Source: Nannocystis pusilla (GTDB taxonomy: Bacteria > Myxococcota_A > Polyangia > Nannocystales > Nannocystaceae). Taken from it: DNA of 64,000 bases. The stretch is taken from NCBI RefSeq assembly GCF_049060185.1, contig NZ_JBMEQO010000002.1. One strand, 5' to 3'. Each line of letters starts with the position of its first letter. Position 1 is the stretch's first letter. The translations under genes were made by a program, and so were the position numbers. Of this stretch, positions 3,791 through 57,200 are shown piece after piece. The notes under the pieces are model-generated. The model ran no database searches, was not told where the DNA came from, and worked only from the letters and a program-made list of their open reading frames with translations.

Positions 3791-3845
3791 GGGACATGCC
3801 CGTTCGGCCATGCCCGCACGGACATGTCCCTCACGGACAGGCGAC
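3791..3845. repeat. GGACATGTCC-family repeat, 14-bp periodic (3 to 4 units)
   Basis: GGGACATGCCCGTTCGGC CATGCCCGCACGGA CATGTCCCTCACGGACAGG. It lies between the convergent gene ends 3775 and 3831. Confidence 0.7.
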
Positions 3846-12540: not shown

Positions 12541-12578
12541 AGGACATGTCCTTTAGACCCTGTCCCCGGAGACATTGA
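12541..12578. repeat. GGACATGTCC-family repeat immediately upstream of the nadE ATG
   Basis: AGGACATGTCCTTTAGACCCTGTCCCCGGAGACATTGA-ATG. It contains a GGAG that could serve as SD. Confidence 0.7.
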
Positions 12579-14556
12579 ATGCACCTCGTCCGCGTCGCCG
12601 CCGCCGCCCTCAACCAGACGCCGCTCGACTGGGACGGCAACCAGGCCCGGATCGTCGAGGCGATCCGCCTGGCCCGCCGCGAGGGCGTCGCCGTCCTGTG
12701 CCTGCCCGAGCTGTGCATCCCCGGCTACGGCTGCGAGGACGCGTTCTTCGGCCGCGGCACGATCCTCGAGTCGTGGCGGATCTTGCAGGAGCTGCTGCCC
12801 GAGACGAAGGGCATGGTCGTCGCGCTCGGCCTGCCGATCATGCACCGCGCCGCCAACTACAACGCGGTCTGCCTGGTCGCCGACGGCCACATCGTCGGCC
12901 TGGTCGGCAAGCGCTTCCTCGCCGGCGACGGCATTCACTACGAGCCGCGGTGGTTCAAGGGCTGGCCGGCCGGCAAGTTCGTGCAGTGGGAGCACGACGG
13001 CCACAGCTACCCGCTGGGCGACCAGATCTTCGAGGTCGGCGGCCTGCGGATCGGCTTCGAGATCTGCGAGGACGCGTGGGTCCCGAACCGCCCCGGCGTC
13101 GAGCTCGCCAGCCAGGGCGTCGACGTGATCTGCAACCCCAGCGCCAGCCACTTCGCGTTCGGCAAGCACGAGGTGCGCAAGCAGATCGTCCTCAACGCCT
13201 CACGCAGCTTCCGCGCCACCTACGTCTACTCCAACTTCATCGGCAACGAGGCCGGCCGCGTCATCTACGACGGCGAGTGCATGATCGCCTCATCCGGCCA
13301 CCTGATCGCCGAGGGCCGCGGCTCGGCTACAAAGACGTCTACGTCACCAGCGCCGTGGTCGACGTCGACCTCGCGCGCATGGTCCACGCGCGCACGACCT
13401 ACGCGCCCACGGTCGACGACAATGTCCGCCGGATCACCCGGTTCGACATGCAGCTGCCGACCGCCGACCTGCCGCCGCACGCCATCGCCCCCGACGACGC
13501 GCTGCGCAACGACAAGCGCGAGGAGTTCTCGCGCGCCGTCGCTCTCGGCCTGTTCGACTACCTGCGCAAGAGCCGGTCGCGCGGCTTCGTCGTCTCGCTC
13601 AGCGGCGGCGCCGACTCGGCCGCGGTCGCCTACCTCGTCCACCTCATGGTCACTCTGGCCACGCAGGAGCTCGGCGTCGCGGCCACCTGCGCCCGCCTCG
13701 GCCTGCCCGAGGGCTCGTGCACCACCCCGCGGGCGATCGTGCGGGCGCTCCTGACTTGCGTCTACCAGGCGACCGCCAACAGCTCCGACACCACCCGCAA
13801 CGCCGCCCGCGCGGTCGCCGAGGCCGTCGGCGCCGAGTTCCTCGAGTTCGACGTCGACCCGCTCGTGCGCGCCTACGTGCGCACGGTCGAGGGCGCGATC
13901 GGCCGCGAGCTCGGCTGGAAGAGCGACGACATCGCCCTGCAGAACATCCAGGCCCGCGCCCGCGCCCCGGCGTGTGGCTGCTGGCCAACCTGCGCGGCGC
14001 CCTCCTGCTGGCCACCAGCAACCGCAGCGAGGCCGCCGTCGGCTACGCCACCATGGACGGCGACACCTGCGGCGGCCTGTCGCCGATCGCCGGCATCGAC
14101 AAGGCCTTCCTGCGCCAGTGGCTGCGGTGGGTCGAGCTCGAGGGCCCCGCCGGCGTCGGCCCCACGCCGGCCCTGAGCGCCGTCAACGTCCAGGCCCCGA
14201 CCGCCGAGTTGCGGCCCGCCGGGGCCAAACAGACCGACGAGGACGACCTGATGCCGTACCCGATCCTCGACGTCATCGAGCGCGCCGCCATCCGCGACAA
14301 GCTCGCGCCGAAAGAGGTCTACCGGGTCCTCGCCAGCCGCTTCCCCGAGCACGGCCGCGACCAGCTGCTGCTGTGGATCAAGCGCTTCTTCCGCCTGTGG
14401 AGCCAGAACCAATGGAAGCGCGAGCGCTACGCCCCGAGCTTCCACCTCGACGACGAGAACCTCGACCCCAAGACGTGGTGCCGCTTCCCGATCCTCTCGG
14501 GCGGCTTCGTGCGCGAGCTCGCCGAGCTCGACAACGTCGTGCCGAAGAGCGGCTGA
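12579..14556 (+). CDS. nadE: Glutamine-dependent NAD+ synthetase (nitrilase + NAD synthase domains); about 2 frameshifts
   Basis: N-terminal CN-hydrolase (…LCLPELCIPGYGCEDAF…, …GFEICEDAWVPNRP…). C-terminal NAD synthase (…GFVVSLSGGADSAAVAYLV…). Pieces in ORFs 12579.., 12575.., 13717... Confidence 0.85.
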
Positions 14557-18399: not shown

Positions 18400-19641
18400 T
18401 CAAGACAGCTTCAATGTGAAGCTCGCGGATGTGCCATCAGCGACGCCATCCGCCGCGCACTCGCAAGCGCCGACCTGCAGCCGGCGCCACGCTTCGCCGC
18501 TCACTTCGGCGCTTCGGAGCGCCGGTGCCCGCCGAGCTTGAGCTTCATCCCCCTGCCCCGGGTCCGGCGCCGGCGCCTGCGGCTCGCTCGGGGTCGTCGT
18601 CTCCTCGCCCGCGCTCGCCGTCGGCTCCGTGCTCTCGCTCGGCGTCGCCGCGGGTTCTTCGCTCGCGCGCGGCTCTGCGATCCCGAGCCCGCGGTCGACC
18701 TCTGCCAGGCGGTCTTCGCGGGCCGCCTTCTCTTCCATCAGGATGAGGTTGATCCAGCGCTCGTCGGCGAACGACACCGTGCCGTCGGTCGCCACCGTGT
18801 ACTCGACCTGCGGCGAGATCGGGCGGACGAACGAGTTGGGCGCGCGCGGCATCTGGATGTCGCGGAGCACCACCGACAGACACTCCTGGACCTTCTGCGG
18901 CAGCGAGTTGGGCTCGACGCGGCTGACCAGGGTGTTGCCGTCGCGGTCGACCAGGTTGAGGCCCTCGACCGGGTACGTCCCGGCGCCGACGCGGCGCTCG
19001 AGGCAGCCCTTGCCGCGGATGGCCGCGATCGCCTGTTGCCGGCGCAGCTCGGCCTTGGCTTGCGGCGACTTGTCCTCCGAGCCGTCGCCGAGGCTGACCC
19101 AGTAGATCACGTCGAGGTACTGCACCACCCCGCTGCGGTTCTTGATCCACTTGCGGCCCTGGATCGCCTCCATGATGCACGGCTCGATCTCGGGGTCCTT
19201 GAAGCCCGTGTCGAGCACCTCCGTGCGCAGCACCTCGCCGTCGGGCGACAGGCGGGTGCGGATCTTGACCTGACCCTCGGGCACGTCGAGGTACGCCTCT
19301 TCGCCGTCGCGCTTGCCTCGCTTCATCGTCTCGATCGCCCGGTTGACGAAGCAGGCCGCGGCGGGCGGCCGCAGGGCCTGGGCGATCTCGTTCAGGCGCT
19401 GCAGGTCGAACAAGTTCTCGGCGCGCTTCGACGGCAGGATGATCACGCCCTCGCTGCTGCTGCGGACCGCCTTTTGGATGTAGCGCGTGCCCTGGCCGAA
19501 CGAGTTGAGGCCGGTCGGCGGCGCGCCTTGCGGGCCGCGCACGCGGGGCCAAAAGGGCGAGGCACGACGCCAGCGCGGCCATCGGCGCGAAATGCGCCGC
19601 ACGCCCTCGCGGTTTGCTTCCGGGTTCCTCTCGGAGCGCAT
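18400..19641 (-). CDS. Hypothetical protein with Glu/Thr/Pro-rich C-terminal tail
   Basis: Long coding-like ORF (…[40 protein letters not shown]…). No domain recognised. Start uncertain. Confidence 0.4.
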
Positions 19642-19711
19642 CGCCCCGGGGTGTAGCACGCCGCGGCCCTTCCCGCGGCGGCCGAAGTTGGCTATGGGAA
19701 CGGGGCAGCAC

Positions 19712-20832
<1,121 letters not shown>

Positions 20833-20848
20833 AGCCTGCTGTCGCTTC

Positions 20849-20903
20849 GTACCTGTCCCCGCGTACCTGTCCCCGAGTACCTGTCCCCGACAACCTGCCC
20901 CGA
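20849..20903. repeat. 14-bp tandem repeat x4 (TACCTGTCCCCGNG) between gcvT and gcvH
   Basis: TACCTGTCCCCGCG / TACCTGTCCCCGAG / TACCTGTCCCCGAC / AACCTGCCCCGAAG. It ends 9 nt before the gcvH ATG. Confidence 0.8.
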
Positions 20904-20912
20904 AGTTTCACC

Positions 20913-21302
20913 ATGAGCAACGTACCGAGCAACCTCCGCTACACCAGAGACCACGAGTGGGCCCGCCTCGAGGGCGACGGCACCGTCGTCGTCGGCATCA
21001 CCGACCACGCGGCCAACACCCTCGGCGACATCACCTTCGTCGACGTGCGGGTCGCCCCCGGCGCCAAGGTGACCGCCGGCGACCTGTTCGGCACGGTCGA
21101 CTCGGTCAAGGCCGTGAGCGACCTGTTCGTCCCGGTCGACGGCGAGGTGGTCGAGGTCAACGGCGAGCTCGAAGCCACGCCCGAGGACGTCAACACCGAC
21201 TGCTACGGCGACGGCTGGATGGTCCGGATCCGCCCGAGCGACGCCGCCGCGTTCGAGCGGCTGCTGACCGCCGCGCAGTACGAGGCTCTCCTCCAGGAGT
21301 GA
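20913..21302 (+). CDS. gcvH: Glycine cleavage system H protein
   Basis: …[24 protein letters not shown]… (lipoyl-lysine region). Confidence 0.9.
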
Positions 21303-22285
21303 CCGCCGTGGCCGCCTGGCTCGCGCTCGTCGCTGTGTTCGGCCTCGCGCCGCCCGCGACCTCGACGCCGGCCCCGCAGGGCCCGGCGCCCGCGAGCCCG
21401 TCGGCCAGCGCCACCCCGGAGGGCCCGAGGCCGGCGCCCCCGAGCCCGGCCATCCCCGCCGCGCCCGCGCCCGAGAACATCGAGGCCGAGGGCAACGAGC
21501 GCGCCGAGCCTCCGGGCGGGGTGCCGAAGATCCCCTCGCCGCGGTCCCTGCGGACTTACGGGACAGGTGCTTTCAAACCTGTCTCGGAGGACACCCTCGG
21601 CTCGCTCGGCCTCAAGCGCCAGCGCGACGGCACCATGATGTACGTCGACGCCGGCAAGCGGTTCACCGCCGTGTTCAACGCCGACGGCACCGTGCGCTTC
21701 GGCGACCGCTGGAACCGCGACCAGAACGGCAACAAGGTCAAGGGCTCGCGCGCCGCCCTGCGCCAGATCAACATGGCCGGCCTCGGCGTCACGGGCCCGT
21801 CGGAGTGGCTGGTCAAGCTGCAGGACCTGCTCGGCGGCCCCGAGACCGACGCCGCCGCCAAGCGCGAGTTCCTCAACCGCACGCGCGAGCTCCGGACGCA
21901 GATGGCGATCGAGTTCACCCTGCGGACCTTGACCTACCGCCTCGGCACGCTCGAGCGCGAGCTGTTCGAGCTGTGGAACGCCGGCGACGACCCGGCCAAG
22001 AAGCGCGAGCTGCTGTTTCAGCGCTGGGACGAGTGCGACGAGGCTTATCGCGTCGAGTTCGCCGGCGAGATCCCCGAAGAGGCCATGTCGGAGATCGATC
22101 GCACCCGCGCCGACGTCGCCGAGCAAGCGCGCCGGATCATCGAGACGTTCGTGCGCCGCCAGCTGCCGCGGTCCGGCCCCAACGGCTTCAGCAAGCGCGA
22201 GCTCGCCGACATGAACGGCCGCCGCACCAGCCGGCAAGAGTTCCGCCCCTACGACATCCACGCGACCCAGAGGACCGCCCAGTGA
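21299..22285 (+). CDS. Hypothetical secreted protein (signal peptide, Pro/Ala-rich linker, charged helical C-terminal domain)
   Basis: GTG start overlaps the gcvH stop (GTGA). Signal peptide [20 protein letters not shown]. Carries an internal palindrome at 21543..21590. Confidence 0.55.
21543..21590. repeat. GGACAGGT variant inverted repeat (GGGACAGGTG-N7-ACCTGTCTC) inside the CDS
   Basis: CGGTCCCTGCGGACTTACGGGACAGGTGCTTTCAAACCTGTCTCGGAGG. Confidence 0.55.
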
Positions 22286-23451
22286 CCCCGATCCTTCCCG
22301 AACTCCAGCCGCAGCTGGCCCGCTACCGCGACGACTATCCGATCCTCGCCCACTCGATCTACATGAACAGCAACAGCATGGGCGCCATGCCGCGGCAGGC
22401 CGCCGAGATGCTGCAGAAGTACGCCGAGGACTGGGCCAGCGAGGGCGTCGAGGTGTGGCCGCACTGGCTCGACGTCATGCGCGACACCGCCGACAGCGCC
22501 GCGCGCTTCTTGAATGCGCCGCCGGGGCAGACCATCCTCAACCAGAACGTCGCCTACTTCCAGGCCGCCATCGCCTCCTGCCTGGACTACTCGCGCGGCA
22601 AGAACCGCGTCGTCGTCGAGTCGCTGCAGTTCCCCAACGTCCTCTACGTGTGGGAGCGCTTCGGTGACCTCGGGGCCGAGCTCGTGCAGGTGCCCTCGGA
22701 CGACGGCATGACGATCCCGACCGAGCGCATGCTCGCGGCCATCGACGAGCGCACCGCCATCGTCCCGCTGTCGCACGGCATCTACGTCTCGGGCGCGCTG
22801 CAGGACATCACCGCGATCACGCGCCGGGCCCACGAGGTCGGCGCGCTCGTCATGGTCGACGTCTATCAGACCGCCGGCACCGTCCCGATCGACGTCGCCG
22901 AGTGGGGCGCCGACATCGTCGTCGGCGGCAGCCACAAGTGGCTGTGCGGCGGCCCGGGCACCGCCTTCATGTGGATGAAGCCCGAGCTGCGCGAGCGCCT
23001 GCAGCCGCGCCTCACCGGCTGGATGGGCCACCAGGACCCGTTCGCCTTCGAGCCGCCGCCGATCCGCTTCGCCAGCGACCACCGCCACTTCCTCGCCGGC
23101 ACCCCCTCGATCCCCGCCTATTACGTCGCCCTCGCCGCCTACAAGAACCTGCACGAGATCGGCGTCGAGCGGATCCGGGCCCACAACCTCGCCCTGTGCC
23201 AGCGCATCATCGACCGGGCGCAGGACGCCGGCCTCGTCGTCCATTCGCCGATCGACCACGAGCGCCGCACCGGCTTCGTCGCCGTCGACTTCGAGGGCAG
23301 CGAGGACGCCAGCAAGCAGCTCATCGAGGAGCGCTACAAGCTCGACTGGCGGCCCAACTGCGGCCTCCGGCTCGGCCCGCACTTCTACAACACCGAGGCC
23401 GAGGTCGAGCGCCTGATGGACCGCGTGGTCGCCCTCGCCGGCCGCAGCTAG
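22282..23451 (+). CDS. kynU: Kynureninase (PLP-dependent, aminotransferase class V fold)
   Basis: Intact 389-aa ORF (…LSHGIYVSGALQDI…, …VVGGSHKWLCGGPGTAFMW…). GTG start overlaps the upstream stop. Confidence 0.8.
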   Translation: MTPILPELQPQLARYRDDYPILAHSIYMNSNSMGAMPRQAAEMLQKYAEDWASEGVEVWPHWLDVMRDTADSAARFLNAPPGQTILNQNVAYFQAAIASCLDYSRGKNRVVVESLQFPNVLYVWERFGDLGAELVQVPSDDGMTIPTERMLAAIDERTAIVPLSHGIYVSGALQDITAITRRAHEVGALVMVDVYQTAGTVPIDVAEWGADIVVGGSHKWLCGGPGTAFMWMKPELRERLQPRLTGWMGHQDPFAFEPPPIRFASDHRHFLAGTPSIPAYYVALAAYKNLHEIGVERIRAHNLALCQRIIDRAQDAGLVVHSPIDHERRTGFVAVDFEGSEDASKQLIEERYKLDWRPNCGLRLGPHFYNTEAEVERLMDRVVALAGRS

Positions 23452-23452
23452 C

Positions 23453-23773
23453 ATGCACCCCGACTACGCCCGGATCTACGCCACCATCCAGCGGATCCCC
23501 CGCGGCCGCGTCGCCACCTACGGGCAGATCGCCGAGCTCGCCGGCTTGCCCGGGCGCGCCCGCCAGATCGGCTACGCCCTCCACGCCTTGCCCGGCGGCA
23601 GCCTCGTGCCGTGGCAGCGGGTCCTCAACGCCCGCGGCGAGATCAGCCTGGCCGGCCCCTCCGGCGACCGCCAGCGCGCCCTGCTGATCGCCGAGGGCGT
23701 CGAGTTCGGCGACGACGGCCGCATCGACCTCGGCGCATATCAATGGCGTCCGCGCGCCGCCCGGCGCCGCTGA
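23453..23773 (+). CDS. MGMT-family DNA-binding protein (alkyltransferase-like, Atl-type; no PCHR active site seen)
   Basis: …IPRGRVATYGQIAEL…PWQRVLNARGEIS…. Confidence 0.65.
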   Translation: MHPDYARIYATIQRIPRGRVATYGQIAELAGLPGRARQIGYALHALPGGSLVPWQRVLNARGEISLAGPSGDRQRALLIAEGVEFGDDGRIDLGAYQWRPRAARRR

Positions 23774-24275: not shown

Positions 24276-26881
24276 ATGCGTAATCGTCTGTGTGGATGGT
24301 TCTCCACGCTCGCATGCATGGGCATAGGTTTCGGCGCCTTGGCGACGACCGCATGCGATTTCGTCTTCACCTGGAACGGCGACGGGGCCCCGGTCCTGGC
24401 TCGCCACCGGACGAGCCGGACGGACCGGACACGCCGGACGACGGCATCCCCGGCTCTCTGGCGAAGGAGAAGCTCCCGCCGCTGTTCGATCGGATCACCG
24501 GCAAGCCCGTCGAGCCCGACCTGATCGTCGACAACGACGCCGCGATCGCGCTCGGCAAGGCGCTGTTTTGGGACATGCAGAGCGGCAGCGACGGCCAGGC
24601 TTGTGCCAGCTGTCACTTCTCGGCCGGCGCCGACAACCGCTCGCGCAATCAGCTGACGCCGGGTCTCATCGGCGGCAACGGCAAGTTCGATCCGACCCGG
24701 ACCGGTGGCCAGGGCCCAACCTGCAGCTCGTCGCGGGCGACTATCCATTTCACGTCTTGAAGGACCCCAAGGACCGCGACTCGAAGGTGCTCTTCGACAC
24801 CGACGACGCCACCTCCTCGCAGGGCGTCCGGCGCGCCGACTTCGAGGCCGTCAAGCCCGGCGCGCTGGACGACAAGTGTGAGACCGTCCCCGATCCGCCG
24901 TTTCAGGTCGACGGCATCAACGTGCGCCGGGTCGAGCCGCGCAACGCCCCGACCGTGATCAACGCCGCCTTCAATTTCCGCAACTTCTGGGACGGCCGGG
25001 CCAACCGCTGGTTCAACGGCGTCGACCCGTTCGGCCGCCGCAACAAGGACGCCTTCATCCTCGAGGTCAAGGGCGGCAAGCCGGTCAAGCGCAAGCTCGA
25101 GATCGTCAACGGCTCGCTCGCCTCGCAGGCTGTCGGTCCGGTGCTCAGCCCGTTCGAGGCCTCGTGTCAGGGGCGCACGCTGCCCGACGTCGGCCGCAAG
25201 CTGGTGCGCCCGCCCACCGTCCCGCTCGCGTTCCAGAAGGTCCACCCCGACGATTCGGTGCTCGGCCCGCTGGCCGCGCCGAACAAGGGCTTGGAGACCA
25301 CCTACAGGAAGATGATCGAGGCCGCCTTCGCCGCCAAGCTGTGGCAGTCGGATCAATGGTTCGACGCCGACAAGAACCTGCTGAAGAACCCCGACTCCGT
25401 CCCGGCCGACCAGCGCTTCAGCCTGATGGAGATCAACTTCAGCCTGTTCTGGGGCCTCGCTATCCAGGCCTACGAGCGCACCCTCGTCTCCGACGACAGC
25501 CCGTTCGACAAGTACCGCGACGGCCGCGATGCCAAGGCGCTCGGCAAGCGCGAGCTCGCCGGCTTCGACGTCTTCCTCAATCAGGGCAAGTGCGTCAACT
25601 GCCACAAGACCGCCATGTTCACCGGCGCCTCGACCCTGCACCTCATCGACGAAGAGGAGGAGGACGGCCTGGTCGAGCGCATGCTGATGACCGAGGAGCA
25701 CTACCACTACGGCGTGCGCACCAACCCGCCGTTCAAGGTCCTGCCATTTTCGCAATGGAAGCCCGGCAAGGGCCAGCGCAGCCTCTCGATCGACGTCGAG
25801 GCCACCCCCACCGCCAAGAAGGACGACATCGTCCCCGGCAAGGCCGTCGGCCGGATCGTCCTCAGCAAGGTCGACGACGATGCCAGTTGCACCTACAAGC
25901 CCGAGACCATGACCTTCGGCGTCGACGACTCCGCCACCCGCGACGCCCGCATCGACGTCAAGCGGATCGACGGCAAGGGTTGCCCCTCGGCGCTGCGGAT
26001 CTCCGTCCTCGACGACGTCAAGGTCGCCAACGCCTGGCTCGACTTCGTCCTCGTCTACGACGACGAGGGCACCCTCGCGTTCGTCGGCCAGGGCCCCAGC
26101 ACCCTCGTCGAGCTGCGCCAGCCGGCCCTCTACGACAACGGCTTCTACAACATCGGCGTGCGGCCGACCGCCGAGGACATCGGCGTCGGCGGCGAGGACC
26201 CGTTCGGCTTCCCGCTGTCGTTCACCGAGCAGTACGTGCAGATGCTGCTCGGCAAGGACGCGCCCGACCCGTTCGAGGTCGACCCGTGCACCTTCGACGT
26301 CCCGTGGAACATCGTCGTCGACCGCCCGCTGTTCCCCGGCGGCTTCAGGGACAAGACCGACTGCAAGGACAAGCTCAAGACCCCGACCGGCGAGCCGAAG
26401 AACAACGCCGCCAACAAGCGCTACATCCAGCGCCTGCGGACCGCCGTCGGCGGCGCCTTCAAGACCCCGACCCTGCGCAACGTCCAGCTCACGGCCCCAT
26501 ACATGCATAACGGCGGCATGTCGACCCTCGAGCAGGTCGTCGAGTTCTACAACCGCGGCGGCGACTTCCACCGCAACCGCGAGCTCGACCCCGACATCAC
26601 CTTCCTCGACCTCGACGCCGAGCAGCGCAAGGATCTGGTGCTGTTCATGCAGTCGCTCACCGACCCGAACGTCGTCTACCAGCGGGCCCCGTTCGACCAC
26701 CCGCAGCTGTTCGTCCCCAACGGCCTCGACGACGTCGACGACGAGAAGCCGGACGACGGCCGCGCCGACGAGGACCTGTTCAAGGGAGACGGCCTCGAGA
26801 TCCCGCCGTCGGCGCCGCCGGCAGCCCCAAGCCGATCCGCACCTTCCTCAACCTCGAGGGCAACGACCTGCCCCCGCCCTG
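24276..26881 (+). CDS. Large di-haem cytochrome c peroxidase-family protein (about 860 aa) with signal/lipobox; about 3 frameshifts
   Basis: Two CxxCH motifs (CASCHF, CVNCHK). CCP-like motifs (…TPTLRNVQLTAPYMHNGGMSTLEQVVEFYNRGG…). Signal MRNRLCGWFSTLACMGIGFGALATTAC. True stop at 26881 (…LNLEGNDLPPP*). Confidence 0.7.
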
Positions 26882-26901
26882 ATCGACGCTGGCTTATACA
26901 T

Positions 26902-26940
26902 GTCTGCGAGGACATGTCCTAATGACATGTCCTCGCAGAC
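26902..26940. repeat. Near-perfect 18-bp-stem hairpin built from two inverted GGACATGTCC units
   Basis: GTCTGCGAGGACATGTCC-TAA-TGACATGTCCTCGCAGAC. It lies 20 bp after the CCP stop. Confidence 0.8.
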
Positions 26941-27058: not shown

Positions 27059-28143
27059 ATGCCGTCCGCGCTCCTCGCCGCAGTGCTCGCGTTCCAGGTG
27101 CCCGAGCCCCGTCTGCCGGCGCGATCGAGTGGCAGGCGCCGGCGGGCTGCCCCGATCGCCGCGCGCTGGCCGGGGCGATCGCCGGCCGCCTCGGCCGCGA
27201 GCCCGCCGCCGACGAGCTCTCCTGGTCGGCCGGGTCGAGCGGGACGGCGCCTCGCAGTACCACCTCGACCTGCGCCTCACCGTCGGCGGCCACGCCCAGA
27301 CCCGGCGCCTCAGCGCTCGGCGCTGCGCCGCGCTGGTCGACGCCGCCGCGCTCCTGGCCGCCCTCGCGCTCGACCCCACCGCCGCCGAGCGCGGTGGGCC
27401 GACCGACCGGATCGCGCCGGAGGTCGAGTCCACGCCGCCCGAGCCCGAGCCGCCTCCCGGCCCCGAGCCGGCCCCTGGCCCCGAACCCGCCCCACCCGTC
27501 GCCCTCGCCTCCGAGGCCGTCGTCGACGCCCCTGCCGCGCCGCTCCAACCCCCGAACCCGCGCCCGAGCCCGCCGTCGTCACCGCCGACGAGCCGCTCGC
27601 CCCGGCCCCGCCGCCGCGCAGGCGAGGTCCCGGCGCGCTGCTCCGCCTCTCGGCCGGCTTCGAGGTCGGCACCGTCCCCGCGCCGACCGCCGCGCTCGAG
27701 CTCGTCGCCGGCGTCCTGTGGCGGCGCGCTCGCCTCGAGTTCCACGGCGTCCACCTCGTCCCGCAGACCGAGGCGCGCCTGCCCAACGAGGTCCGCGTCT
27801 ACCTGCTCGGCGGCGGCGCCCGCGGCTGCGCTCGCCTGTCGCGCGGCCGCTTCGAGTTCCCTCTGTGCGGCGGCGCCGAGCTCGGCGGCCTGCGGGGCCA
27901 GGGTCGCGGCCCGGCGCGCGCGCGGCCACCGGCCTGTGGGCGGCGGTGCTCGTCTCGGCCGGCGCCACCTGGCGGTTTCACCGGCTGCTCGGCCTCAGCC
28001 TGGCCGCCCAGGGCCTCGTGCGCCTGGCCGCCCCGAGCTTCGACCTGGAGGACACCCCGGAGCCGGTCAACCTGTTCACCAGCGCGCCTGCGAGCCTGCG
28101 CCTGCTTCTCGGCCTCGAAGTGCGCCTCGGAGACCCGCGGTGA
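27059..28143 (+). CDS. Conserved hypothetical protein immediately upstream of the ECF sigma factor; frameshifted
   Basis: …IEWQAPAGCPDRRALAGAIAGRLGREPAADEL / [53 protein letters not shown]… and a C-terminal part ending …LGLEVRLGDPR* at 28143. Confidence 0.45.
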
Positions 28144-28181
28144 CGGAAACCGTCTCGGCCGGGGACAGCCCCCACAGCCCC

Positions 28182-28761
28182 ATGCTGCTCGCCACCGACC
28201 GCGAAGCGCGCTTCGCGCCATCTACGACCGAGAGTTCCACTTCGTGTGGTCGGCCGCGAAGTACTTCGGCGTCCCCGCGGCCGCCCGCGACGACGTGGTC
28301 CAGGACGTCTTCCTCACCGCCTACCGCCGCTTCGACCAGGTCCACTACCAGGTCTCGGCGCGCGCCTGGCTGTACGGCGTCACCCGCCGCGTCGCCTCGC
28401 ACTGGCACCGCGGCGTCGCCCGCCGGACCCGCCGGATCGCCGCCCTCGGCGACCTCACCGGCCACGTCGGCGAGGCCCTGCAGGAGCGCCACGACGCCGC
28501 CCGCCTGCTCGAGCGCCTGCTCGCCGGCCTGCCTCGCGGGACCCGCGAGGTGTGGAGCTGACCGAGCTGCTCGGCATGAGCGGCCCCGAGATCGCCGCCG
28601 AGCTCGAGCTGCCGCTCAACACCGTCTACTCGCGGCTCCGCCTCGCGCGCGCCCGCCTGCTCGAGCTGGCCGCCAGCCCCGAGCTGCTGGCCTCCGAGGT
28701 CGCCGAAAGCCGCCGCCGCGAGGCGCCCCGGCCGACGCCGCCTCGCGCACCTGGGCCGTGA
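28182..28761 (+). CDS. ECF (sigma-70 family) RNA polymerase sigma factor; about 2 frameshifts
   Basis: Region 2 (…IYDREFHFVWSAAKYFGVPAAARDDVVQDVFLTAYRRFDQ…). Region 4 (…ELLGMSGPEIAAELELPLNTVYSRLRLARARL…). Confidence 0.75.
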
Positions 28762-29665
28762 TGGTCCCGCTGTTCGGCCACGGCAAGCTCGCCACCGTGG
28801 CCGCCGCCTGGACCACCGCGCGCGCCGGCGTCATGACCACCCTCGTCGTCGCCGGTGCCACCACCGTCGTCGCGGTCGCCCCCGCCAGGCCCCGGGCCGG
28901 GCCACCGCCGCGCACGTCGAGGACCTGTCCGCAAAGCCAGCTGGCTCTCGTTCCAGCGGTGACATGCCTCGAGAGACTGCCGCGCCATCGCCCGCCGACA
29001 TGTCCCGAGAGACAGCCTCTCTTCCGCCCGACGACATGTCCCGAGAGACAGCCTCTCTCTCGCATTGTCATGTCTCGAGAGACCGCCTCGCCTCCGTCCG
29101 CCGACCTGTCTCGAAAGACAGCCCCGCCCCAGCCCGCCGGCACGTCGCGAGAAACAGCCGCGCCCCGCCCGACGCTGCCGGCCCGCAGCGGCCGCCCGCC
29201 CCGCCTCCCCGTTCTCGTTCTCCCACCTCCGCGCGCGGGTCTCTGCCCTCTGGACCCGCATCCCCTGTCGCCGGGCCCCGCGGCCGACCTGTCCCCGAGG
29301 ACAGCCTCTCCCGCGCCCGTCACCCGCCCTGCCTACGAGCAGCTGCTGTCCCGAGAGACATCCGCGCGCGCCCCGCCCGCGACGACCTCGCCCTCGAGGT
29401 CGGCCTCCTCGACCGCGCCCGCGCCCGCCTCGACGCCCGCGACCCGGCAGGCGCCGCCCAGCTCCTCGACGCCCACGCGCGCCAGTTCCCGCGCGGCGCC
29501 CTCGTCGACGCCCGCGAGGCTGCCGCTGTCGAGCTCCTGTGCCTGCAAGGCCGTCCCACCGACGCCGCGACCGCCGCCCAGCGCCTGGCCGCGCGCCTGC
29601 CCGACTCGGTGCTCGCCCGCCGCTTCGAGCGCTTCGTCTGCCCCGACGACGACGAGCCGCGCTGA
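28761..29665 (+). CDS. Membrane-anchored putative anti-sigma factor; the linker is occupied by a 36-bp tandem-repeat array
   Basis: ATG overlaps the sigma stop (TGATG). TM helix …GVMTTLVVAGATTVVAVAP…. C-terminal domain …DLALEVGLLDRARARLDARDPAGAAQLLDAHARQFPRGALVDAREAAAVELLCLQGRPTDA… in another frame. Confidence 0.5.
28921..29370. repeat. 36-bp tandem-repeat array (about 5 good units at 28961..29143, then degenerate units to about 29370)
   Basis: Units: GACATGCCTCGAGAGACTGCCGCGCCATCGCCCGCC / GACATGTCCCGAGAGACAGCCTCTCTTCCGCCCGAC / GACATGTCCCGAGAGACAGCCTCTCTCTCGCATTGT / CATGTCTCGAGAGACCGCCTCGCCTCCGTCCGCC / GACCTGTCTCGAAAGACAGCCCCGCCCCAGCC…. Further copies at 29287 (GACCTGTCCCCGAGGACAGCCTCTCC) and 29346. 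Confidence 0.85.
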
Positions 29666-30107: not shown

Positions 30108-30510
30108 ATGACGGCACCGACGAACCCGGAGCGTGACCGCGAGGTCGACGCGTTCTTGCACCTCCTCGGGCGCGCGCTGGTGGAAGGCGACGCCCTCACG
30201 GTGGCGACGCTGTACGAGACCCCGCCTTCGTGCTGGCGGACTCCGGGCGCAGGCCGTCGCCCGGCGCGAGGAGATCGAGCGCTTCTTCGCCGGCGCGCGG
30301 GCGCAGTACCTCGAGCGCGGCGTGACGATGACGCGCCCGGAGGTCGAGTCGCGCGAGTGGGTCGGCGACCGCGTGGTCCTCGTGCGCGTGGCCTGGCCCT
30401 ACATCGACCGCGACGGCCGCGAGGTCGGCCTCGAGCGCTCGACCTACGCCCTCCGCCGCGACGACTCGGGGGCCCTGCGGATCCGCGTCGTCATGCCCCA
30501 CCGCGACTGA
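30108..30510 (+). CDS. NTF2-like (SnoaL/DUF4440-like) small protein; 1 frameshift
   Basis: …EEIERFFAGARAQYLERGVTMTRPEVESREWVGDRVVLVRVAWPYIDRDGREVG…. Confidence 0.5.
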
Positions 30511-30529
30511 CCTGTCCCCTGGGACATCC
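30509..30529. repeat. GGACA/TGTCC inverted unit (ACCTGTCC-CCT-GGGACATCC)
   Basis: Lies between the convergent genes 30510 and 30544. Confidence 0.55.
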
Positions 30530-31564: not shown

Positions 31565-31630
31565 GAGCATGCCCTCACGGCCATGTCCTGACAGACATGT
31601 CCCCGACGACATGTCGCCGGGGACATCCAG
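31565..31630. repeat. GGACATGTCC-family repeat cluster (about 5 units, 12 to 14-bp period)
   Basis: GAGCATGCCCTCACGGCCATGTCCTGACAGACATGTCCCCGACGACATGTCGCCGGGGACATCC. Intergenic. Confidence 0.75.
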
Positions 31631-43533: not shown

Positions 43534-43612
43534 AGGACATGTCCCGAGGGTCATGCCCCTTGCGCATGCCCGAGAGAACATGCCCCCGAGGTCATATCCC
43601 GAAGGACATATC
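43534..43612. repeat. GGACATGTCC-family repeat cluster (5 to 6 units) between convergent genes
   Basis: GGACATGTCCCGAGGGTCATGCCCCTTGCGCATGCCCGAGAGAACATGCCCCCGAGGTCATATCCCGAAGGACATATC. Confidence 0.8.
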
Positions 43613-46519: not shown

Positions 46520-46780
46520 CGCGCCGTCCCTCGCGCCGCATCGGTGCTTCGCCCGCGCTCCGCAGCCGTCGCCTCGCTCGATCGCGCCGCCCCACGTCAG
46601 TTCGTCGCCGTCCCTCGGTCGCGCCGCCTTACGTAACTCTTCGCCTCGCTCGCGCCGCCCCAGTCCGTCGCCCGCCCTCGCTTGCGCCGCCCCGGTCGGT
46701 CCGTCGCCCGCCCTCGCTCGCGCCGCCCCAGTCCGTCCGTCGCCCGCCCTCGCTCGCGCCGCCCCACGCCCCATGTCCCT
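46520..46780. repeat. 36–40-bp GC-rich tandem repeat array x7 (GTCGCCCGCCCTCGCTCGCGCCGCCCCAGTCCGTCC)
   Basis: Direct tandem copies. The best three lie at 46657..46770; more diverged copies lie upstream. No unique spacers. Confidence 0.8.
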
Positions 46781-46850
46781 CAGGACATGCCCATCCGGCC
46801 ATGCCCATCCCGACATGTCCGTTCCGACATGTCCTCTCGCCCTCTCGCGA
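46775..46850. repeat. 14-bp tandem repeat x5 (CATGYCCNTYCSGR)
   Basis: CATGTCCCTCAGGA / CATGCCCATCCGGC / CATGCCCATCCCGA / CATGTCCGTTCCGA / CATGTCCTCTCGCC. Confidence 0.85.
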
Positions 46851-50064: not shown

Positions 50065-50082
50065 GACCCCGGTTCCGAAGGC

Positions 50083-50108
50083 CCTGTCCTTCGAGACATG
50101 TCCTTGGA
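50083..50108. repeat. GGACA/TGTCC units between rplC and rlmE
   Basis: CCTGTCCTTCGAGACATGTCCTTGGA. Confidence 0.6.
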
Positions 50109-50789: not shown

Positions 50790-50858
50790 GGGACATGTCC
50801 TCCGAGACATGTCCCGACGCACCCTGCCGCCGGGACATGTCCTCCGCGACATGCGCCG
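50790..50858. repeat. GGACATGTCC-family repeat cluster (4 units): two GGACATGTCCTCCG-GACATG pairs
   Basis: GGGACATGTCCTCCGAGACATGTCCCGACGCACCCTGCCGCCGGGACATGTCCTCCGCGACATGCGCC. Confidence 0.85.
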
Positions 50859-54440: not shown

Positions 54441-54693
54441 CAGCGAGCGACGACAGTCATCGCAACGCAGCGCAGCGCATGACAGAGTCCTTCCCTCCGG
54501 AAGGCCGTTTTCGGGCTGCGAGCGACGCCCGCAACGCAGCCCAGCGCATGAATCGGCCTTCCGAAGGCCGTTCTTTTGGAGCTGCGAGCGACGCCCGCAA
54601 CGCAGCCCGGCGCATGACTCGGCCCTCTCGAAGGCCGCTTTTTCGAGCTGCGAGCGACGCGACGCAGCGGGGCGCATGACTGGCGTCCCGCGT
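54441..54693. repeat. About 66-bp tandem repeat x3.5, each unit with a small GC hairpin plus T-tract (terminator-like module)
   Basis: Unit: GCTGCGAGCGACGCCCGCAACGCAGCCCRGCGCATGAMTCGGCCYTCYGAAGGCCGYTYTTTTSGA (units at 54441, 54516, 54582, 54648). Confidence 0.8.
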
Positions 54694-56182: not shown

Positions 56183-56232
56183 AGACATGCCCTCTCAAGC
56201 ATGTCCGAAAGACCATGTTCGATAGGACATAC
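56183..56232. repeat. GGACATGTCC-family repeat cluster (4 units)
   Basis: AAGACATGCCCTCTCAAGCATGTCCGAAAGACCATGTTCGATAGGACATACC. Confidence 0.7.
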
Positions 56233-56386: not shown

Positions 56387-57040
56387 ATGCCCCGGCCACG
56401 CGAGTTCGATCGAGACGAGGCCATCGAGCGGGCCATGGCCGTGTTCTGGGAGCACGGCTACGACGGCACCTCGACCGATCAGCTCCTCCAGGCCATGGGC
56501 ATCGGCCGCCAGAGCATGTACGCCGCCTTCGGCGACAAGCACGGCCTCTACCTCGCCGCGCTGGAGCGCTACCAGGCGCGTCAGGGCGCCGACCTGCTGG
56601 AGCGGCTGCGGGCGGTGTCCTCCCCGCTGGGCGCGATCGAGGACATCCTGCTCGGCGTGGCCGGAGACACCGCCGAGGGGCGTTCGCGCGGCTGTTTCGG
56701 CATCCAGTCGATCATCGAGATGGCCGGGCGCGACCCCGAGGTCGTGACCCTGGCCCGCAGCGCCACTGCCCTGTGCGAGGCCGCCTTCGAGCGCATGGTC
56801 GCCGAGGCCAAACGCCGCGACGAGGTCGGCGCGCACGTCGACGAGCGCAGCGCCGGCCGCTTCCTCCTCTCCACCCTGCAGGGCCTGCGGGTCAGCGCTC
56901 GCACGGGCGCCACGCCCGAGGCCCTGCGGGCCGTCGCCGGCTTCGCCATCGCCGCCCTCCGGCCGCGCCGCCCGCCGCAAGTTCTTGACTCCATGGTCCA
57001 CAACCCTACCGCTCGCGGCAGCCAGCGACGCACCGCGTGA
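56387..57040 (+). CDS. TetR/AcrR-family transcriptional regulator
   Basis: HTH motif …FWEHGYDGTSTDQLLQAMGIGRQSMYAAFGDKHGLY…. Confidence 0.8.
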   Translation: MPRPREFDRDEAIERAMAVFWEHGYDGTSTDQLLQAMGIGRQSMYAAFGDKHGLYLAALERYQARQGADLLERLRAVSSPLGAIEDILLGVAGDTAEGRSRGCFGIQSIIEMAGRDPEVVTLARSATALCEAAFERMVAEAKRRDEVGAHVDERSAGRFLLSTLQGLRVSARTGATPEALRAVAGFAIAALRPRRPPQVLDSMVHNPTARGSQRRTA

Positions 57041-57200
57041 GCGGCCCGTCGTCGACTGCATCGTCTAAAAACTCACCGCTCGCGACAGCCCGCGACGGAC
57101 CGCATGCGCGGCGTCGTCGACTGCATCCTCCACAACCCACCGTTCGTGACAGTCGACGCCCACCGCCTCGGGCGGCCGTCGTCGACAGGAGTGATTCGTC

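Follow-up and report, generated by a model that had tools for sequence, protein, structure and literature searches.

A 14-bp tandem repeat family in Nannocystis and its member in the gcvT-gcvH spacer

MIRUs are tandem repeats with units of ~40-100 bp. They are dispersed over the genome of a high-GC bacterium, lie in operon spacers and vary in copy number, and their internal ORF is coupled to the downstream start at a spacing of -4 (PMC12548453). REP/BIME elements are short, high-copy extragenic palindromes typically located just after stop codons or between the genes of an operon, with ends that in some cases provide the stop codon (PMC3733652, PMC2817692). Termination, mRNA stabilisation, supercoiling and protein binding have been proposed as their roles (PMC3733652, PMC2817692), and the RAYT (Y1 transposase) gene is flanked by inverted REPs (PMC2817692). 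Stem-loops mark Rho-independent and Rho-dependent 3' ends alike, and in the terminators of high-GC species U tracts tend to be shorter and stems longer (PMC13613805). Rho itself loads at rut sites, which are ~78 nt long, unstructured and ribosome-free, with C/G > 1 and regularly spaced C (PMC6407284). Here we describe a 14-bp repeat family from a 64-kb stretch of Nannocystis pusilla DNA (the window, meaning the whole stretch analysed) and compare the member located between gcvT and gcvH with these systems.

The repeat in the gcvT-gcvH spacer

The original prediction placed a tandem 14-bp repeat between gcvT and gcvH, and inspection of the sequence, TRF and Markov simulations all bear this out. 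The locus comprises the following features.

19713..20833, + strand: gcvT (aminomethyltransferase), stop TGA at 20831-20833; Pfam GCV_T (2.5e-88) and GCV_T_C (3e-22), on two frame pieces
20834..20848, + strand: first 15 nt of the spacer, GCCTGCTGTCGCTTC; on a reading of the sequence likely a decayed family unit (CTGCTGTCG against ACCTGTCC)
20849-20862, + strand: unit 1, GTACCTGTCCCCGC, 14 bp
20863-20876, + strand: unit 2, GTACCTGTCCCCGA, 14 bp
20877-20890, + strand: unit 3, GTACCTGTCCCCGA, 14 bp
20849..20890, + strand: units 1-3 taken together, GTACCTGTCCCCG(C/A), a form of the family core that is not palindromic (ACCTGTCC)
20891..20903, + strand: unit 4, CAACCTGCCCCGA, degenerate, 13 bp
20904..20912, + strand: tail AGTTTCACC, 9 nt, before the gcvH ATG (20913); no SD
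20913..21302, + strand: gcvH (glycine cleavage H protein, 129 aa); Pfam GCV_H 7.1e-39

TRF reports the array at 20849-20903 with a period of 14, 4.0 copies, 90% matches and a score of 82. It starts 16 nt past the gcvT stop and ends, as predicted, 9 nt ahead of the gcvH ATG. Four 14-bp units had been claimed; three are near-identical, while the fourth is degenerate and has 13 bp. Nor does the array make up the entire spacer: it covers 55 of the 79 nt, with the first 15 nt resembling a further decayed unit. Matching at lag 14 reaches 36/42 positions in the array, the maximum of the 64-kb window. Since 200 first-order Markov simulations gave a mean lag-14 maximum of 25.7 (sd 1.1) and none above 31, the repeat is not a product of chance.

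The gcvH product and N. pusilla GcvH are 100% identical; at its 3' end the gene shares 4 nt with the next one. In relatives gcvT is intact and encodes 373 aa; in the window, a G lost from a GGG run at ~20481, as located against the relative L086, puts it out of frame. The window is rich in indels that split many genes. Our in-house gene calls are approximate, yet annotated loci concur with them.

Orthologous spacers were compared between the window, N. sp. RBIL2, a second N. pusilla, a public-run assembly, N. punicea, N. exedens and two genomes at 65% GcvH identity. This comparison in related genomes, which the original prediction had called for, revealed an array of 14-bp period at the same site in 8/8 Nannocystis genomes. 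The gcv-type repeat was absent from the other Nannocystaceae and Myxococcota gcvT-gcvH spacers examined, which are short and A/C-rich. In one MAG this position is taken by a tandem repeat of 8 bp that is unrelated to it. Within Nannocystis the spacer measures 67-111 nt, and the number of units is lowest in N. exedens (2+1) and highest in RBIL2 (5+1). The orthologues together show an array that was in place before the sampled Nannocystis species diverged and whose turnover consists of gain and loss of whole units.

Conservation within the array is uneven. The ACCTGTCC core is retained in all eight arrays and every unit carries C, not A, at the palindrome centre, while the 4-6-nt linkers vary (CCCCGA, CCTGAA, CCGCAA, TCTTCA). 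In the alignment of the eight spacers the cores of the last two units are invariant and the last full unit is fixed in position; the degenerate last unit keeps its position in 6/8 genomes and is still recognisable in the other two. The last unit and the tail form a conserved proximal gcvH leader, CCCCGAC..GAAG..TTCA.C-ATG, defined by the invariant alignment columns. At the position of the 20834..20848 stretch N. exedens and N. punicea carry CTGCTGTCC. Mean column identity over the spacer is 71%, compared to ~92% for the 71 nt upstream of gcvT, which implies that most of the spacer length is weakly constrained. Judged from these alignments, weak constraint fits a permissive spacer, and likewise a neutral one.

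The family across Nannocystis genomes

The gcv units belong to a family spread over the window and further Nannocystis loci. A position matrix of 48 units gives a 10-bp core, gGACATGyCC, followed by 4-5 variable bases, with a period of 14 bp; GGACATGTCC is a perfect 10-bp palindrome. The 9-mer GACATGTCC occurs 32 times in the window, compared to 0.4 occurrences expected by chance. From this consensus the gcv units depart at two positions only, with T at -2 and C at +1 (the palindrome centre). The exact gcv-type 12-mer recurs at 29287, and ACCTGTCC-type units are interspersed in other arrays of the family. In the window and the fetched loci the units follow each other head-to-tail, spaced nearly always by 14 or 28 bp. 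The density is ~1 array per 3 kb, with 21 arrays in the 64-kb window and 2-6 per ~20-kb locus elsewhere; extrapolated to the 12.7-Mb genome, this implies family copies that would number in the thousands.

Tandem core pairs were counted in three Nannocystis sequences, with 24:1 in the window, 8:0 in L001 and 5:2 in L002 (~0.35-0.4 per kb), and none were present in 78 GcvH loci of other taxa, many of them of similar GC. A description of the Nannocystis 14-bp repeat family was not found in the literature searched, and the main text of the REP surveys consulted does not mention myxobacteria. By these comparisons the family is apparently restricted to the genus Nannocystis and apparently undescribed. 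Arrays occupy five orthologous sites in several species, namely gcv, prs-nadE and the 3' ends of an MGMT-like gene, pmbA and the CCP gene. Judged by this shared occupancy the five sites are old; the number of units, and sometimes their orientation, turns over at orthologous sites. The following arrays of the window illustrate the range of contexts.

3792..3842, no strand assigned: palindromic array between convergent genes, 16-17 nt past the + strand stop; hairpin, z -3.7 / -3.5
12541..12578, + strand: family units at the prs-nadE junction (GGACATGTCC, GACCCTGTCCCC, GGAGACAT); the first unit overlaps the prs stop TAG (12554-12556)
26897..26932, + strand: array overlapping the stop of a CCP_MauG-like gene; strong hairpin, z -6.7; orthologous array in L081 and L086
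31566..31619, + strand: array 18-34 nt past the stop of a minus-strand pmbA/tldD-like gene; predicted to fold on either strand, z -2.7 (+ strand) and -3.6 (- strand)
43535..43612, + strand: array between convergent genes, 2-3 nt past the + strand stop; z -3.1
46770..46834, + strand: five-unit array, 23 nt from the stop of a minus-strand gene; z -4.2
50081..50103, + strand: two-unit array, 16 nt past a stop and 349 nt ahead of the next start
50791..50853, no strand assigned: palindromic array between convergent genes, 11-12 nt past the + strand stop; z -4.6
56183..56206, + strand: two-unit array, 33-34 nt past a stop and 180 nt ahead of the next start; z -3.0

Each of the 21 arrays in the window lies outside genes or overlaps no more than a stop codon, and the gene calls in the fetched loci concur. 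A possible intragenic case lies at 28961-29171. In co-directional spacers with sufficient room 13 of 20 arrays begin ≤45 nt past the stop, compared to 2.8 expected under uniform placement (P = 7e-8), and many further arrays lie between convergent genes, ≤30 nt from both stops. The usual start is 0-40 nt past the stop, for genes of either strand, and often the stop codon is itself the beginning of the first unit (TGAC[AC]TGTCC). With its start 16 nt past the gcvT stop, the gcv array follows this rule, and since the family norm is a position just after stops, its tie to the 3' end of gcvT is no weaker than that to the 5' end of gcvH. The original prediction treated the array as a device of the gcv operon; it is instead one locus of a genome-wide family whose members usually lie just after stops.

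Arrays close to a start codon were found at gcv and prs-nadE only, both in short spacers of the operon type, and operon-internal arrays are rare (~2 among at least 30 sites). The parallel drawn earlier with nadE is partly correct. Two related units are present at 12541-12578. The first one, however, overlaps the 3' end of prs, and the spacer does contain an SD, GGAG at 12568-12571, which is formed at a unit junction. A mini-ORF at 12546-12578 abuts the nadE ATG, and the junction is unstructured (z +0.2, -0.7 and -0.2).

The orientation of the arrays is not set by the gene strand. In the window nearly all have their C-rich strand on +, including those beside minus-strand genes; the array at 31566..31619 has + orientation despite its minus-strand gene, and its orthologues in L081-L086 have 2-6 units. 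The GC skew of the window is unusually strong (-0.13) and equal in + genes, - genes and intergenic DNA. A metagenome scan yielded 80 contigs with a two-unit pattern, which were used for orientation and skew only; their gene contexts were dropped because the codon model put many arrays 'inside' genes. Contigs with a skew < -0.03 carried 13 "+" and 4 "-" arrays, those with a skew > +0.03 carried 7 "+" and 16 "-" arrays (odds ratio 7.4, p = 0.0095). The opposite replichore was sought via kinase paralogues, and as 3/3 of these loci again had negative skew, the link between skew and orientation rests on the metagenomic contigs. Their split by skew indicates that array orientation follows strand composition, not transcription. 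The link may reflect mutation pressure on the palindrome or strand-specific insertion; strand-specific insertion is known for ssDNA transposons, which target the lagging-strand template (PMC6006769).

Structure and possible roles of the gcvH leader

Palindromic arrays of the family are predicted to form hairpins between adjacent units (z -2.7 to -4.6 in five examples), with stems of 8-10 bp contributed by neighbouring units. Over 38 arrays the median z is -3.2, and 71% lie below -2. For the gcv region (20820-20945, 126 nt) the MFE is -20.2 kcal/mol, compared to -24.4 for shuffles (z +1.3), and an equally good or better fold was obtained for 185 of 200 shuffled sequences. For the spacer by itself z is -0.3. 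For the core of the gcv array the z-scores are +1.9, +1.1, +0.7 and -0.4 in four species, in each of which all other arrays are more structured. Since every gcv unit has the central C, hairpins of the family type are impossible here. The original prediction had proposed that the repeats could sequester or present the ribosome-binding region and looked to a fold of the gcvT-3'/gcvH-5' RNA for support. This fold reveals no structure beyond that of shuffled sequence, neither over the region (z +1.3) nor in the spacer (-0.3) or the array core (+1.9), and speaks against sequestration. The gcv and nadE arrays together differ from the other arrays (Mann-Whitney p = 2e-4), a value to be read with the orthologues being non-independent and the independent sites only two. 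From these two sites, gcv and prs-nadE, comes the idea that operon-internal copies may lose their hairpins.

An SD scan confirmed that the gcvH start has no SD-like motif. The predicted significance of this lack did not hold up: an SD-like motif is present at only 17 of 50 annotated Nannocystis starts, at a background motif rate of 14%, and since the other 33 are likewise without one, the gcvH start is not special. The GAAG at -11 to -8 is conserved (GAAG or GAAAG, 8/8 genomes) but matches no core SD motif and was rejected as an SD. It might pair with the distant 3' tail of the 16S rRNA; no rRNA gene lies in the window. Initiation without SD depends on a local lack of structure (PMC3121790), and in the folding models the gcvH leader provides such a structure-free context.

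Other signals were searched for at the locus. No sigma-70-type promoter was found in or near the spacer, and no intrinsic terminator in 19300-21500. The array has neither hairpin nor U-tract and is not terminator-like, in agreement with the original prediction. No glycine riboswitch or any other Rfam family was detected in the window at the gathering threshold, and in 19400-21000 at E<=1 the single match, Mcr7, is at chance level. A long-range pairing of CGGGGCAG, upstream of gcvT, with CTGCCCCG in the last unit was likewise judged to be at chance level, and is lost in L084/L085. On the sequence evidence a regulatory role for the gcv array is possible.

We propose that the gcv array is a REP-like 3'-end element that has been retained within an operon in a version without hairpins and leaves an open leader for gcvH, a reading on which our confidence is evenly divided. 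In this proposal, hairpin-forming members of the family would act like REP or terminator-type 3'-end elements, and the gcv member would persist within the operon because it is hairpin-free. RNA polymerase would read through the array, and the SD-less gcvH start would be left open for direct binding of the 30S subunit, presumably the normal mode of initiation in the genus. The exact number of copies would be of little consequence, making the array a permissive leader or spacer and not a coupling device or switch. The fixed central C could stem from a founder effect via unit duplication rather than from selection.

A bolder version is conceivable, which we hold to be unlikely as a whole. It would see a Nannocystis-wide, undescribed repeat system, probably with thousands of copies, that marks 3' ends on both strands, is polarised with the replication strand and offers shared hairpin building blocks or phased sites for a factor. 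The gcv copy would then be domesticated, having been selected to be hairpin-free as an SD-independent landing pad for ribosomes.

Alternatively, the array may be a neutral minisatellite, with an ancestral unit after the gcvT stop that expanded and contracted by slippage, ACCTGTCC as the founder state and no effect on gcv expression. The free copy number (2+1 to 5+1), the drifting linkers, the faster evolution of the spacer compared to the neighbouring gcvT leader, and the turnover of other orthologous arrays in number and orientation are all consistent with this. We nevertheless consider neutrality rather unlikely, since the array has been kept at one site in 8/8 genomes down to 65% GcvH identity, with invariant cores in the last two units and an invariant proximal leader. 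The G-depletion of the spacer is extreme (G count in the lowest 1.4% of windows), none of the species tested has an array with less structure than that of gcv, and arrays inside operons are otherwise rare (~2 of at least 30 sites).

Phased binding sites appear improbable as an explanation. Here a protein would recognise TGTCC or GGACATGTCC at a 14-bp/nt period, either on DNA, for instance by acting at gene ends as a nucleoid or topology factor, or on RNA, and the gcv units would be lower-affinity sites modulating gcvH or local transcription. A perfect 10-bp palindrome is what dimeric DNA-binding proteins typically recognise, the units recur almost without exception every 14 or 28 bp, and the independence of orientation from transcription would suit a function at the DNA level. 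A conserved ACCTGTCC core with free linkers fits a sequence-specific factor equally well, and REP/BIME elements do bind several proteins (PMC2817692). However, no candidate factor emerged, a dimer would bind the gcv units poorly because their palindrome is broken at two positions, and pairing of adjacent units already accounts for the conservation of the palindrome.

Distinctly improbable, in our view, is a rut-like site at which Rho would load on ~80 nt of ribosome-free, C-rich, G-poor and unstructured RNA and, at times of slow initiation at gcvH, exert conditional polarity on this gene and those downstream. The published features of rut sites are present, with 67-111 untranslated nt, a C/G of 1.9-2.4 in the orthologous spacers, regular cytosine tracts and no structure (PMC6407284). 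At C/G = 2.1 the spacer of the window belongs to the top 2.8% of 78-nt windows. The + strand consists of 41% C, however, and C/G > 1 applies to 85% of its windows anyway, which makes this criterion nearly meaningless here, and random sequence is full of such features (PMC13613805). Arrays beside minus-strand genes would be G-rich in the transcript, so that Rho loading is not the general function of the family, and lowering the H protein relative to the T protein would have no obvious rationale.

Last, the original prediction favoured translational coupling of gcvH to gcvT, or a ribosome-binding region hidden or presented by the array. The array does take up the greater part of the spacer and stops 9 nt short of an SD-less start, the proximal gcvH leader is conserved, the prs-nadE junction has its mini-ORF abutting the nadE ATG, and MIRUs demonstrate that tandem repeats of operon spacers can serve coupling (PMC12548453). 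Coupling by termination and reinitiation requires that stop and start overlap or lie no more than ~10-20 nt apart, and in tested gene pairs is almost abolished at ~20-38 nt (PMC10666635); coupling by RNA unfolding requires an inhibitory structure at the downstream start that is melted by the upstream ribosome (PMC12548453). The gcv spacing of 67-111 nt greatly exceeds the 20-38 nt at which reinitiation disappears, and no ATG, GTG or TTG occurs in any frame of the spacer, which holds CTG codons only. A bridging mini-ORF over the array was rejected for want of a canonical start codon and because the ATGA stop/start overlap is found in only 4/8 genomes. With this spacing, no bridging ORF and no predicted inhibitory structure for an upstream ribosome to unfold, we rate this explanation lowest and very improbable.

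Comparison with described repeat systems

In myxobacteria with genomes of 11-13 Mb and 72% GC, recognisable terminators or ribosome-binding sites are few, and the ends of transcription units are poorly understood. A short motif just past stops, every ~3 kb, would offer a testable handle on 3'-end formation in these organisms, and the arrays would be ready VNTR markers for typing Nannocystis strains. The gcv locus represents a natural experiment in which a palindrome-stripped repeat precedes an SD-less start. Should the gcv array turn out to be neutral, it would still be a clear case of a long-lived bacterial minisatellite within an operon.

With rut sites the gcv spacer shares a length of ~80 nt, a C-rich, G-poor and unstructured character and regular cytosines, on a 41% C strand where these criteria have low specificity; it differs in that the orientation of the family is not tied to the direction of transcription. 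The short- or no-U-tract terminators and 3' stem-loops of high-GC species resemble the family in having stable, GC-rich stem-loops at a distance of a few nt up to tens of nt past the stop, which between convergent genes are predicted to function on both strands. The family stems, known here as predicted hairpins, derive from one shared repeat and not from locus-specific palindromes, and the gcv array is entirely without a hairpin.

MIRUs are matched by the gcv and prs-nadE arrays, which also lie in operon spacers, and by a copy number that varies between genomes. In contrast to MIRUs, the gcv units measure 14 bp, a length not divisible by 3, and contain no canonical start codon, and most members of the family are located at gene 3' ends and not at start codons.

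Like REP/BIME elements, the family is extragenic, clustered, stop-proximal and hairpin-forming, with TGAC... units that provide the TGA. REP elements exceed 100 copies per genome, and the Nannocystis family has 21 arrays in the 64-kb window and 2-6 per ~20-kb locus elsewhere. A REP is a self-folding imperfect palindrome of 20-40 bp (PMC3733652), whereas the family unit has 14 bp with a 10-bp core; since a 14-bp unit with a 10-bp palindrome cannot fold alone, a hairpin needs two adjacent units. The end tag of REPs, GT(A/G)G or CGTC (PMC3733652, PMC2817692), is absent from the 48-unit matrix, in which the flanks are variable and C/T-rich. BIMEs alternate in orientation, whereas the family units run head-to-tail. 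No Y1_Tnp domain was detected among the 52 predicted proteins scanned in the 64-kb window. The host is a myxobacterium, and the gcv copy is non-palindromic. The family is closest in kind to REP/BIME elements, yet distinct from them in several features, and has the habit of a MIRU-like VNTR in operon spacers.

Position of the repeat arrays

In the 14-bp-period repeat family of Nannocystis, whose arrays lie mostly just 3' of stop codons, the first bases of a unit often form the stop codon itself (TGAC[AC]TGTCC), as seen at window 30508-30517 and in the Nannocystis loci L001, L002 and L082, 3' of an MGMT-like gene. The orthologous 3' end of this one gene carries from a single unit to 3-5 tandem units depending on the species, and in either orientation. 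One family array, conserved in both N. punicea and N. bainbridge, departs from this stop-proximal placement: it lies in a divergent promoter region (L208 9760-9797 and L210 9760-9797), where the two starts are 65-77 nt and 203 nt away.

Larger tandem repeats occur in the window as well:

Larger tandem repeats (window coordinates)
28961-29171: 36-bp higher-order repeat, 5.9 copies
46567-46768: 36-bp tandem repeat, 5.8 copies, adjoining a family array (46770-46834)
54493-54660: 66-bp tandem repeat, 2.6 copies
56997-57186: 67-bp tandem repeat, 2.9 copies

The unit of the first combines a conserved part of 21 nt that includes the family core (GACATGTCCCGAGAGACAGCC) with 15 variable nt. Since the DNA of 28961-29171 aligns to the C-terminal half of an ECF-sigma-like protein in the Nannocystis loci L081 and L082, the family units in this stretch may be located inside a gene.

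Split genes and base composition

Sequence comparison revealed many single-base indels that separate the window from close relatives, and several genes are interrupted:

Interrupted genes (window coordinates)
~20481: gcvT, one G missing from a GGG run
12579-14553: nadE, reading spread over three frames
24318-26879: CCP_MauG-like gene, split into four pieces
28140-29650: ECF-sigma-like gene, at least five frame switches

Further genes are present as fragments only (the BipA C-terminus and a partial FtsJ). This pattern suggests that the assembly is rich in indels, not that the split genes are true pseudogenes.

The GC skew of the window (1-64000) is very strong and uniform at -0.13, with 41% C and 31% G, and is equal in plus-strand genes, minus-strand genes and intergenic DNA. 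Values of -0.06 to -0.15 were obtained for all Nannocystis loci (the window, L001, L002, L081-L086 and L208-L210); in most GcvH loci outside the genus the skew is near zero.

The gcv cluster

The 71 nt 5' of the gcvT ATG (19642-19712) share ∼92% identity even in the most divergent Nannocystis pair and contain the inverted repeat GCCGCGG-cccttc-CCGCGGC. As this conserved region matched neither a glycine riboswitch nor any other family in an Rfam search, it may represent an uncharacterised regulatory leader or promoter.

Locus L006 from a Nannocystaceae MAG lacks the 14-bp family, and its equivalent gcvT-gcvH spacer (∼2740-2790) holds a different tandem repeat, four copies of the 8-bp unit GAGCAATC. 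The genes downstream of gcvH (21299-23773) encode, in an order kept across Nannocystis, a conserved protein of ∼330 aa that no Pfam family matches, then a class-V aminotransferase-like protein and finally a protein with an MGMT-type DNA-binding domain; overlaps or very short spacers join the genes from gcvH onward. The cluster contains no gcvP.

The prs-nadE junction

A mini-ORF of 10 codons spans the prs-nadE junction. The first repeat unit contains the ATG of this mini-ORF (12546), which precedes the prs stop by 8 nt; the TGA of the mini-ORF (12576-12578) abuts the nadE ATG at 12579. The mini-ORF is open in N. exedens too, and the junction of two units creates the nadE SD (GGAG, 12568-12571). 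This layout resembles the coupling arrangement of MIRU, the mycobacterial operon-spacer repeat with an internal ORF coupled to the downstream start.
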